In this document: in pieces, positions 476 to 3,667 of the stretch
Layout: each line of letters opens with the position of its first letter
Numbering within the stretch: position 1 is the first letter of the stretch
Origin: a virus
Lineage: Duplodnaviria; Heunggongvirae; Uroviricota; Caudoviricetes
Direction: 5' to 3' (one strand)
Virus record (IMG/VR): IMGVR_UViG_2896595138_000009
DNA: 15,092 nucleotides
Translations under genes and position numbers: made by a program
The notes under the pieces: generated by a model
What the model was told of the DNA's origin: nothing
Database searches by the model: none
Seen by the model: only the letters and a program-made list of their open reading frames with translations

Positions 476-1873
476 ATGCCGCGCACTGTAACACATAATC
501 CGGATAGCCCCAATAATGACGATGTTTTAGCCGCATCTGAAAAATGGGACGCCTGTAAACCCCCCTATACCAGCGCACACATGAAAATCTGTGTTGCTGC
601 CGCCAAAATCATCCTCGCTGCTTCCGGCGTGGCTCGCCGTTCCAAATACGAAAAAGAGAACTATCTCCGTATCGATTTCAGCAAAGCCGGTAAGGTTACA
701 TTTTACGCCGAGTTTCCAAAAAAGATGGGCCTCAAAGGTAAAAAGCTCGGCGAGTGGCCGGAGCTCGCTATCCAGCTGGCGCGCGAAAAAGCACTAGGTA
801 TGGCTGACGGTGGACTGCGGGCAGAGTCCGTACATGCAGCGCTGGAAATGTACCGGGATGACTTCAAAGCCAAAGTAGCCCGGCAGAAGTTGAGCCCGGA
901 CAGTTTCACAACCTACGGGGTGCGTATCGACCGGATTAAAGCAACGTTCGGCGAGCGTGAGGTGTTCAGCGACGTAACATACAATCGGCTGGTGGAAGTG
1001 CTGGACGAGTGGATCGCCACTCGCTCGAACAATAACGCCCTGGAGTTGTTTGCCGAGCTCCGTCGGTTCTGGAAGTTCTGCGCACCTACTCTTTGCAACG
1101 GCCGCAATGTTGCCGCCAGTCTGCCAGATGATTATGTTTCCTCCCGCGTACAGAAACCTACCCCCACACGGCTTTTTACCGATATTGAATCAATCGCCCG
1201 ACTCTGGCTCAATGTTGCTGCCTGCACCTCTGTACACCAGAAGAATGCTGTTCGCTTCATGATCATCACTGGTGTTCGTCCGATTAATGTCCATAACCTG
1301 CGCTGGGACTACGTTTACGAGGAGGCTGGTGAAATTGTTTATCCGGAAGGGGTTATCGGCATGCGAGGGGCTATGAAAACACAAAAGGCTTTCCGCCTGC
1401 CGATAACGCCTGAGATCCGGCGGATTATCGACGAGCAGAAAGCCTGGCGTGATTCAGTTCCTGAGTGCAACAGGGATTATGTATTTTTGCAGCCACGTGA
1501 TCCAATGCAGCCATTTTCAAAACGATCACTGGATAAGCTGGTGAAAACATACAGCCCGGACGGGGCTGTAAAAGGAATAAAACATGATGGGACTGTTAAA
1601 GGGAAAGACGGTGCATTTAATACGATGTGCCGTAAATTCCTTAAGAGCAATGTTATTGCCTTGATGAAGGAAAGAGGCTATTCCCGCTCAGACCGAAGGG
1701 AAATCAGCCTCCTTTGCCTTCACCACTCCAGCAAGTCAGATGACCCGATGGCAGAACATTACGACTTTTCTGATGAGATTTTACAGGAAGAGATTGCGTT
1801 GAAGCGCGAAGCTTTCGAGGCTCACGAGCGGAGCATACTTGCGCAGGTGGCATTGCTACGGCGGCGAGGTTAA
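476..1873 (+). CDS. int: Phage-type tyrosine recombinase / integrase
   Basis: About 465-aa ORF directly beside the core gene. N-terminal arm-type region, C-terminal catalytic region with conserved Arg (TGVRPINV), paired His (LCLHHSS) and a Tyr near the C-terminus (AEHYDF). ATG at 476 has an AGGA Shine-Dalgarno 7 nt upstream; the ORF track begins 6 nt earlier at a TTG. Confidence 0.8.
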   Translation: MPRTVTHNPDSPNNDDVLAASEKWDACKPPYTSAHMKICVAAAKIILAASGVARRSKYEKENYLRIDFSKAGKVTFYAEFPKKMGLKGKKLGEWPELAIQLAREKALGMADGGLRAESVHAALEMYRDDFKAKVARQKLSPDSFTTYGVRIDRIKATFGEREVFSDVTYNRLVEVLDEWIATRSNNNALELFAELRRFWKFCAPTLCNGRNVAASLPDDYVSSRVQKPTPTRLFTDIESIARLWLNVAACTSVHQKNAVRFMIITGVRPINVHNLRWDYVYEEAGEIVYPEGVIGMRGAMKTQKAFRLPITPEIRRIIDEQKAWRDSVPECNRDYVFLQPRDPMQPFSKRSLDKLVKTYSPDGAVKGIKHDGTVKGKDGAFNTMCRKFLKSNVIALMKERGYSRSDRREISLLCLHHSSKSDDPMAEHYDFSDEILQEEIALKREAFEAHERSILAQVALLRRRG

Positions 1874-2070
1874 TACTGGCTGCGACATTTTTGAATAAAA
1901 GCGTCGACATTTCGGCGCTCATAACGAACCACTTTTGCACTGAAACGAATTGGTGCCAGGATAGCCCGATGACGATGCTTAATATTCCACTCACATAGTG
2001 TTTTCTGTGTAATACCTAATTTTTGGCATACTTCATCCGGGGTGAGTAAATCGTCGGGTTTCTCGCTCAT
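1870..2070 (-). CDS. AlpA/Xis-like helix-turn-helix protein (putative excisionase or prophage regulator)
   Basis: 66-aa ORF with an HTH-like segment ([21 protein letters not shown]) in the pattern of AlpA/Vis/Xis small DNA-binding proteins. Its ATG overlaps the stop of the upstream minus-strand gene as ATGA (coupling), and its stop overlaps the integrase stop. Confidence 0.55.
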
Positions 2071-3667
2071 GCTATACCTCTCTTTTTCATGGCATCGAGC
2101 AGGATGTCCTGCACTGTTCGTTTTGAGTTGCGCTGCTCCATCACCATTTCGTCCATAGTGTCGGCAGCAATAATGTGGTGAATAAATACCGGACGATTGT
2201 GTCCGGCCTGTATCTGTCTGGTTGGGCCGATACGTTCAATAATTTGCTGATATTGCTCCAGGTCCCACCAGTGTGAGAAAAATACCAGTATATATCCGCC
2301 GTCCTGCATGTTCAGACCGTGGCCCGCGCTGGCTGGGTGTGCAAAGAGAACAGGAATCTTTCCGGAATTCCAGTCACGTAGTGTCTGTGGATCCTGGTCG
2401 AGGTGACGACCGCGAGGAAATGCTTTAAGCAAGCGTTCAAGATCGTGTTTCCAGTGATAAGCAACCAGCACAGGTGCGCCAGCTGCTTCGGTCAGTATGC
2501 TGTCCAGCGCCTGTAGTTTGGTGTCATGCAGTTCTGACCAACTTCCGGCGTCGTCTGTGTATACTGCGCCACTGGCGATTTGCAGACACTTCAGTGTCTT
2601 TGCCGCGGCGTTCGGTGCTTCGATGCCTTCGTCTATTTGTTCCTGTTTTAGTGAAGGGCGGGGAAGATTCTGGGGCTGGAATAGCCGTCCGGCCCAACGA
2701 CCGGTACGTGACGCCCCGCAGAACTGTAGCGTACCGCGTAAGCGCCCGTCGTGGCTTACGCCTTTCATCAGTGCCTTGTATTTACTGGTGCTGGTAGTAC
2801 TGGCCTGCAGGCGGATAGCCAGCAGTTCTTTCACGGCAGATGGTAAATCGGGGTCGGCTATACGACGTTCTAGGGTACTGCGTTGCATGTCTGGTAGCTC
2901 CACACCGTAGGATTCAACGATGTGCTTAATCAACGCGTCCCGTTGTGTGGCTGCCTGCACTTCGCCATCAGTCATTTCCTGTGTACGCTTTGCCAGGCGC
3001 TTTTGCTCCTGGTCTACCGCTTCGATCGCAGCGCGCGCGAGTTGCATGTCCATGCAGACGCCCCGGTCGTTGATCTGCTGATCACGATGCCAGAGCGCCA
3101 GTTCTGTCCCCTGATAATTCCACTTCGGCAGACGGTTATAGACTTCGCGCATTGCCTCGATATCCAGTCCGGCGTAAGCAACAAAGCGCCGCCATTCTTC
3201 CGGGGGGGTTTTGCTGGTGGCCCGGCGCAGTTTGCTGTTTTTCGGGCGTGGCTTACAGAACAGCTGGATCAGCGCTTTACCTTCTTTGTCCTTCGCTTTG
3301 TCTTGCGGGACGCCTAGTACTTCGCAGAGTTCCCCAGAGACCCCGGGAGACCGTGCGCCAGCGCCTGCACCATTGTGTCGCGCCAACGTTCGACTGGCGG
3401 TGCCAGGCGCGGCATTGCATAACGCAGGACGGTGCGGTCGAAGTGAGAGTTATGAAAATAAAGCAGGGTTTCAGGGGCTGCGATTGCTTCGTATAAGCCG
3501 TGTGGAATACCACCACCGGCAGTGATATCCCACACGTTTACGGGCCCGTCGTTGATAGCCCATGCGAACAGCATCACTTCAACGCCTTCGGCATACGCAT
3601 GGGTACCGTTCGTAATAGGGATTTCGCAATAGGTTTCCAGGTCGCCCCAGAGAATGTTTTCAGACAA
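2067..3667 (-). pseudogene. Frameshifted chimeric ORF: family-A DNA polymerase 3'-5' exonuclease domain plus start of the polymerase domain, fused to an SNF2-type helicase C-terminal domain
   Basis: N-terminal ORF (3667-3314) has Exo I (WGDLET) and Exo II ([12 protein letters not shown]) motifs; the next frame has Exo III-like [13 protein letters not shown] and a PolA-like segment [21 protein letters not shown] (compare TGRLSS..PNLQNIP), but motifs A/B/C are absent. The C-terminus instead carries SF2/SNF2 helicase motifs IV-VI ([47 protein letters not shown]). The two ORFs overlap at 3314-3386 in different frames, consistent with a 1-bp indel near the C4/G4 run at 3332-3335. TTG start at 3667 has a GGAGGA Shine-Dalgarno 7 nt upstream. 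Confidence 0.55.

Follow-up and report, generated by a model that had tools for sequence, protein, structure and literature searches.

The 15,092-nucleotide stretch of viral DNA considered here (the window; IMG/VR record IMGVR_UViG_2896595138_000009, class Caudoviricetes) carries a tyrosine integrase gene, int, which meets a gene for a 66-aa protein, here called xis, end to end on the opposite strand. We consider it probable that the two genes meet here, tail to tail, as parts of an "inverted-integrase" module for site-specific recombination, carried by a temperate phage whose integration site is the 5' end of yfhL. In such a module, int (476-1873) would read inward from the prophage end, using a promoter of its own that lies in the left attachment arm (attL) and carries a LexA box, and the 66-aa gene (1870-2070) would encode the cognate excisionase as the last gene of the opposing early/replication block. 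Because int would have its own promoter and xis would belong to the opposing early block, excision would need two separately controlled transcripts, with the directionality factor setting the direction of recombination. As part of this same reading, and with the same confidence, we take the short overlaps at the two ends of xis to be by-products of genome compaction rather than a dedicated regulatory device.

The overlaps were read from the sequence and the list of open reading frames (ORFs). On the plus strand, int extends from an ATG at 476 to a TAA stop at 1871-1873. On the minus strand, the 66-codon gene begins with an ATG at 2070-2068 and ends with a TAA at 1872-1870, and the ORF upstream of it (2067-3386) ends with a TGA at 2069-2067. 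As an earlier note on this DNA had described, the stop of the upstream ORF overlaps the xis ATG as ATGA (2070-2067 on the minus strand), the xis stop overlaps the int stop on the other strand within a single TTAA, and the module ends at int, with xis as the last gene of the minus-strand block. The RefSeq annotation of two near-identical Escherichia coli prophages (L001 and L002) contains the same two 4-nt overlaps, at 4870-4873 and 5067-5070. Neither overlap is statistically remarkable, because ATGA and TTAA belong to the commonest overlap classes in prokaryotes, where overlaps most often measure 4 bp, with ATGA in co-directional pairs and TTAA, CTAA, CTAG or TTAG in convergent pairs (PMC2174442), and where a 4-nt overlap is by far the commonest spacing of serial gene pairs (PMC10666635).

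The comparison of this arrangement across relatives was based on 83 loci. When viral contigs were scanned with the 66-aa protein, 80 loci were obtained, 79 of which were used (one had no tblastn match); Serratia phage OS31, two prophages of E. coli and a phage induced from E. coli completed the set. The 66-aa gene is real and under strong purifying selection, since synonymous changes far exceed non-synonymous ones, all homologues match the HTH_17 family and the predicted fold is excisionase-like. Among the 38 distinct alleles in the 83 loci, the more distant ones differ from the window-type allele by 33-43 synonymous and 3-17 non-synonymous changes (for example, 33 against 3). The HTH_17 match was obtained in 20 of 20 homologues (best E-value 6.5e-07), and the AlphaFold (AF2) model calculated from 20 homologues (pLDDT 80.7) presents a strand-helix-helix-wing-helix layout. 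The earlier note was therefore correct in considering the xis-like gene real, but the tight packing it had offered as an indication is not what establishes this, as ATGA is intrinsic to the start of xis: it is found in 78 of the 83 loci because the second codon of xis begins with A.

The closest solved structures to the 66-aa model identified with Foldseek are BldC, the Xis of mycobacteriophage Pukovnik, RdfS, the GIsul2 excisionase and MerR-family DNA-binding domains, and the superpositions with the Pukovnik, RdfS and GIsul2 excisionases reach query-length-normalised TM-scores of 0.6-0.7 with probabilities near 1. At the sequence level, the best PHROG match is to PHROG 4745 ("DNA binding protein"), followed by weaker matches to the excisionase PHROGs 66 and 1553; RefSeq names the protein "helix-turn-helix transcriptional regulator", and the homologue in Serratia phage OS31 is annotated as "excisionase". 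NCBIfam models yielded no match for either xis or int, including no excisionase model for the 66-aa protein, and a search of PDB sequences with a xis profile elicited only marginal BldC matches (E = 0.04). The protein is thus small (< ~100 aa), matches HTH_17 and is of the winged-helix DNA-binding type, and its gene lies beside, and is co-inherited with, its cognate integrase on at least three phage backbones. It is probably the excisionase, or recombination directionality factor (RDF), of this integrase.

The association with int holds throughout the loci analyzed, in line with the earlier note's suggestion to compare the int-xis arrangement in related elements. The 66-aa gene adjoins the same 465-aa integrase in 83 of 83 loci, either directly or with one inserted gene in between, and in most of them the two genes abut and overlap. 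The 4-nt stop/stop overlap with a full-length int is present in 69 of the 83 loci, and 4 more have the overlap on a contig that ends inside int. Three loci present CTAA instead of TTAA, a change that is synonymous in xis and turns the int stop from TAA into TAG, so that both stops are kept. OS31, whose backbone is that of a lambdoid siphophage and whose identity is down to 70%, has the same overlap. The overlap is absent from 10 of the 83 loci, which carry an insertion between xis and int. It consists of an ORF of 128 aa, whose N-terminus resembles a signal peptide (MAKKIALLGFSALFVASVAFAE...), and of a GGGGC...GCCCC hairpin that follows xis immediately and has a T-rich tail. Direct abutment of xis and int hence appears to be common and old, yet dispensable, because these 10 relatives hold an extra gene and hairpin between them. 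The loci with the insertion, which resembles a moron placed in a recombination module, are L061 (4202-4731), L060, L066, L073, L074 and L076-L080. Furthermore, the int/xis pair occurs with the same stop overlap on three different backbones (helicase/polymerase-type prophages, lambdoid prophages with an upstream exonuclease, and OS31), which indicates that the int/xis cassette travels as a unit.

The integrase gene is intact. Its product matches PF00589 with 28.5 bits (cut-off 27.1) over residues 246-359, corresponding to profile positions 14-117 of 172, a match to the catalytic domain; it also matches PHROG 1 ("integrase") with an E-value of 7e-26, and RefSeq names it "tyrosine-type recombinase/integrase". 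A putative HxxS...EHY motif was read by eye in its C-terminus. The opposite side of int is occupied by yfhL, which is perfectly identical to its E. coli K-12 counterpart up to position 231; the identity decays from 232 to 251 and then ends. The annotated 23-bp "attachment site" at the start of Serratia phage OS31 aligns with the 225-251 region. Because K-12 identity degrades and stops in this manner, the element sits in the 5' end of yfhL, which it rebuilds from sequence of its own, and its integration replaces the region upstream of the gene. Between positions 232 and 261, the first ~10 codons of yfhL are phage-derived, with several mostly silent differences from K-12. yfhL has also been reported as an insertion site of Stx2b prophages (PMC12029490).

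The 214 nt that precede int are phage DNA belonging to the attachment arm, and a predicted promoter directed toward int lies within them, 117 nt upstream of the int ATG. The order yfhL/attL (~225-251), int on the plus strand (476-1873) and xis on the minus strand (1870-2070), with the int promoter region in attL, is that of an inverted-integrase module. In an alignment of six int-upstream regions, extending to 70% overall identity and including Serratia phage OS31, the two copies of GCAACACA and the single ATGTGTGAGCTT located between the predicted promoter and int are invariant. By analogy with the attL region of KplE1 (PMC2951348), these repeats are candidate arm-type binding sites for Int or Xis.

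The int-proximal arm also contains a LexA (SOS) box-like palindrome. The site at 336-355 is the only one in the window fitting the pattern TACTGTAT-N7-CAGTA; as a palindrome it is counted once per strand, giving 2 matches in 15 kb where 0.01 would be expected. A position weight matrix (PWM) built from 23 known E. coli boxes, which serves as a rough test, assigns it 20.5 bits, compared to a leave-one-out median of 19.1 for the known boxes and 8.5 bits for the runner-up in the window. The site is a 20-bp palindrome of the CTGT-N8-ACAG type, with a score within the range of proven E. coli boxes. It is conserved in position in 77 related loci, with scores of 18.5-20.5 bits, and scores 15.5 bits in OS31. 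The box lies between the -35 and -10 elements of the predicted plus-strand promoter of int and over the -10 element of a predicted minus-strand promoter directed toward yfhL. This conserved box appears to be a better-supported control signal than antisense transcription, with LexA binding predicted from the sequence.

The gene upstream of xis is a dead pseudogene, the product of a 3.4-kb deletion and a frameshift. Window positions 1-2631 are collinear with the E. coli EH2252 prophage (L001) as far as the last 188 codons of its SNF2/DEAD-box helicase gene, and BLAST shows that positions 2606-3658 are collinear with the first ~353 codons of the DNA polymerase gene of the same prophage. The junction (2606-2631) contains a 17-bp stretch, GTGCTTCGATGCCTTCG, that is common to the helicase and polymerase genes, which indicates a deletion between short repeats; alignment of the junction against L001 shows that the 3.4 kb lost at GTGCTTCGATGCCTTCG comprised four small genes together with the N-terminal part of the helicase and the C-terminal part of the polymerase. 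The two pieces are joined in frame, with matches to PHROG 17 (polymerase) and PHROG 62 (helicase) within a single ORF. In addition, a C run near 3334 has lost 1 nt, which cuts the polymerase start codon (3667) off from the rest of the frame and generates a stop at 3314-3316. The "polymerase chimera" of the earlier note is accordingly a genuine fusion, but not a functional gene. A promoter-like site on the minus strand within this pseudogene (2314-2287) was considered as an internal xis promoter and discarded, as its 9/12 match to the consensus is at chance level (7 such sites in the region, against 4.7 expected).

The earlier note had also interpreted the ATGA as evidence that xis is translationally coupled to the gene before it. 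A strict version of this proposal, in which xis expression depends on coupling and the helicase:Xis ratio is fixed by it, seems to us unlikely. Overlaps of the ATGA type are in general associated with tight termination-reinitiation coupling, which requires an overlap or a very short distance, since reinitiation drops steeply with distance (PMC10666635). Intact relatives do show the overlap with a complete helicase gene, and coupling is plausible in these helicase-type phages, but an upstream ORF of helicase length ending in the TGA of the xis start is present in only 56 of the 83 loci. In 22 of the 78 loci with an ATGA start, the upstream ORF ending in that TGA spans only 3-5 codons, and in those loci without helicase that were inspected the true neighbour is a 190-aa exonuclease or a Rha-like gene whose stop lies 1-55 nt before the xis ATG. 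A GAGG Shine-Dalgarno sequence is located 6-7 nt upstream of xis with a spacing that is fixed across every type of upstream neighbour, and it is not hidden by RNA structure, the local fold being no stronger than that of shuffled sequence (z = -0.05). Coupling would thus not be needed for xis expression, as xis keeps its own GAGG whatever the upstream gene. The window itself has the overlap, but the frameshift severs the upstream frame, and translation from the polymerase start codon halts 1.25 kb before xis; because reinitiation falls off with distance, coupling is inoperative here and cannot be the mode in which this copy of xis is expressed.

A different proposal concerns the other end of xis. 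The abutment could be a selected device in which early minus-strand transcription of xis enters int and lowers Int levels, by antisense RNA or polymerase collision, and in which int transcription silences xis in the lysogen. A scan of the window found no intrinsic terminator between xis and int or just beyond xis, and beyond the xis stop the RNA is less folded than shuffled sequence (z = +1.21), so that minus-strand read-through into int would be physically possible in the intact phage, and some transcriptional overlap is physically likely there. The persistence of the stop overlap down to OS31 and the retention of both stops in the CTAA variant also agree with such a device. Nonetheless, TTAA is the default type of convergent overlap, and in the ten relatives with an insertion the 128-aa gene and its hairpin with a T-rich tail stand between xis and int and may block read-through. 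Past the xis stop, the first 80 nt are unstructured and rich in C (30 C against 18 G). Rho-dependent termination acts on untranslated RNA, and RNA that is C-rich, G-poor and unstructured would favour early termination over the synthesis of a long antisense RNA. The sole candidate for a terminator inside int that would define a discrete antisense RNA, a hairpin at 1550-1570 on the minus strand, is broken in relatives, and was discarded. An Rfam scan of the whole window found nothing at the int/xis junction. Moreover, the window is a remnant from which the phage early region is gone, and the word "antisense" does not occur in the consulted text of the papers on Phi24B (PMC3064807) and KplE1 (PMC2951348), which have the same gene layout. 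On this balance we regard a dedicated antisense device as quite improbable. We consider equally improbable that the 66-aa protein is not an excisionase, but a small MerR/BldC- or AlpA-like transcription factor, regulating int or other phage genes, whose adjacency to int is incidental. Its RefSeq name, its best PHROG, the absence of a match among NCBIfam excisionase models and the BldC-DNA complexes at the top of the structural matches would fit a regulator. Set against these are the linkage of the gene to the same int on three unrelated phage backbones, at the usual position of an RDF gene, the agreement of its size and fold with the Pukovnik Xis, RdfS and GIsul2 excisionases, and the matches, albeit weak, to two excisionase PHROGs. 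Both roles are also compatible, given that TorI directs excision and represses intS (PMC2951348).

Several observations weigh against an inverted-integrase module with an excisionase and incidental overlaps. The copy of the 66-aa protein in the window covers 51 of 51 HTH_17 profile positions but scores 25.8 bits, under the Pfam cut-off of 27; the top structural match of the model is a transcription regulator, BldC, in complex with DNA; and the Foldseek E-values are all weak (6e-3 at best). The predicted int promoter matches the consensus at 9 of 12 positions and its -10 hexamer varies among relatives, and the overlap of the LexA box with the predicted yfhL-directed promoter leaves its target gene uncertain. 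Lastly, that the stop overlap persists down to 70% identity could be due to selection and not to inheritance.

The inverted-integrase layout proposed here has precedents. In Phi24B (Fogg et al. 2011), int is inverted with respect to lambda and lies outside CI control, and xis is located at the 3' end of int under the control of pL (PMC3064807). Phi24B and the element in the window would share an inverted int with its own promoter and, convergent with it, a small xis that adjoins the int 3' end, keeps the orientation it has in lambda and belongs to the early leftward operon. They differ in integration site (yfhL here), the comparison being one of gene layout. The function of Phi24B Xis was shown experimentally, whereas here it is deduced, and no LexA box is reported for the Phi24B int promoter in the consulted passages of that paper (PMC3064807). 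In the KplE1/HK620/Sf6/CUS-3 group (Panis et al. 2010), int has a promoter that overlaps attL, is repressed by Int as well as by the RDF, and is transcribed independently of the RDF gene (PMC2951348). The resemblance to this group, represented by IntS and TorI, comprises the dedicated int promoter over the attL arm, the uncoupling of int and RDF and an RDF of ~66 aa with a winged helix, and we count as a further likeness that control of excision in the group rests on RDF expression (PMC2951348). In contrast, the KplE1 group integrates at the argW tRNA gene and the element described here within a gene that codes for a protein; that Int and RDF exert negative autoregulation has been demonstrated in the KplE1 group and is suggested here only by the conserved repeats; and the LexA box is an extra feature.

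The module also shares with lambda a tyrosine integrase and a small winged-helix Xis, encoded at the distal end of the early leftward operon, by the attachment site. In lambda, however, int and xis overlap, point the same way and are transcribed together from pL, with pI and sib retroregulation, whereas int lies here on the opposite strand, with a separate predicted promoter and no space for a sib-like element. A LexA box placed over a tyrosine recombinase promoter would make recombination responsive to SOS, and is reminiscent of the LexA-controlled integron intI (PMC3108266). Unlike the phage integrase described here, for which LexA binding is predicted, integron integrases recombine cassettes and operate without an RDF. 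We conclude from these comparisons that the window appears to contain a yfhL-specific, uncharacterised module of the already known Phi24B/KplE1 layout, with a possible LexA input as an additional feature. The coordinates of all these elements are provided in Table 1.

Table 1. Features of the int/xis module and of the adjoining regions of the window (a dot denotes a feature without assigned strand).
Feature	Position	Strand	Basis or remark
yfhL	1-261	-	matches E. coli K-12 yfhL
Approximate attL core inside yfhL 5' end	225-251	.	limit of K-12 identity and alignment of OS31 attachment site
Predicted sigma-70 promoter toward int (TTAACT, 18-nt spacer, TATATT)	330-359	+	consensus scan, 9/12 matches
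LexA (SOS) box-like palindrome TACTGTATGTTGATCCAGTA	336-355	.	pattern search, PWM, conservation
Predicted promoter toward yfhL	381-352	-	promoter scan
Short repeats GCAACACA (382-389, 395-402) and ATGTGTGAGCTT (431-442)	382-442	.	between predicted promoter and int
Tyrosine integrase gene int, 465 aa, intact	476-1873	+	PF00589, PHROG 1, RefSeq, full-length ORFs in relatives
TTAA holding both convergent stop codons (int and xis)	1870-1873	.	read from sequence
xis-like gene, 66 aa, probable RDF	1870-2070	-	HTH_17, PHROG, AF2 fold, dN << dS, int linkage
ATGA (plus-strand TCAT), stop of helicase-derived ORF overlapping xis start	2067-2070	-	read from sequence
Shine-Dalgarno GAGAGG of xis, within end of upstream ORF	2076-2081	-	minus strand reads AAAAAGAGAGGTATAGCATGA
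DNA polymerase N-terminal part fused in frame to C-terminal ~188 codons of SNF2 helicase, pseudogene	2067-3667	-	BLAST against L001 and L002; PHROG
IS600	6083-7236		within insertion sequence (IS) block 6083-12061 replacing the rest of the prophage
IS4-family transposase gene	7487-8710	-	within IS block
IS66-family element	9430-12061		transposase gene split at about 11100-11160

From its gene content, the element in the window appears to be a prophage remnant of the Shigella ipaH-island kind, located in yfhL, truncated by insertion sequences and deprived of its early regulatory region; its IS600, ISSfl3-like and ipaH sequences are what points to Shigella. Beyond ~6019, phage genes yield to IS600, IS4-family and IS66-family elements and then to a split ipaH gene. 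The module is therefore a relic, in which int and xis are intact, the upstream partner is dead and the early region has been replaced by IS elements. The window copy of xis lacks the phage early region as well as the helicase-upstream region of intact relatives, and is probably no longer transcribed in the normal way or coupled in translation.

Additional features were noted in the remainder of the window. An unassigned ORF of 235 aa (8669-9376) lies inside the IS block. The ipaH-family effector gene (12336-14161, minus strand) is divided into a leucine-rich repeat ORF (12776-14161) and a C-terminal E3-ligase ORF (12336-13202) that are in different frames and overlap by ~430 nt, and is probably a frameshifted pseudogene. 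The only Rfam match in the window corresponds to sRNA-Xcc1 (4552-4642, minus strand; 65.6 bits, gathering score 53), directly upstream of a BRO-N/antirepressor-like gene (3734-4510). A near-consensus promoter (4756-4727) is found near the sRNA-Xcc1 match, and a strong terminator-like hairpin (3722-3703) follows the BRO-N/antirepressor-like gene.

Taken as originally described, the junction is a routine one in a dead prophage, with overlaps of the default types, and of very little import. The analysis assigns a probable excisionase to the yfhL-targeting integrase family, and shows an int/xis cassette moving between unrelated phage backbones. A more ambitious scheme, to which we give little credence at present, would place int of this widespread yfhL-integrating family in the host SOS regulon: the LexA operator in attL would silence int, and possibly the displaced yfhL, until released by DNA damage, Xis would be supplied separately from the derepressed early operon, and convergent transcripts devoid of terminators would interfere with each other and tune the Int:Xis ratio. 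We found no direct precedent in the literature for LexA-controlled prophage integrases or for antisense control of convergent int and xis genes. If true, this scheme would provide a phage counterpart of the LexA-controlled integron integrases, with control by convergent transcription in addition, and the LexA box, if functional, would constitute a direct link between the SOS response and excision competence in many enterobacterial prophages.

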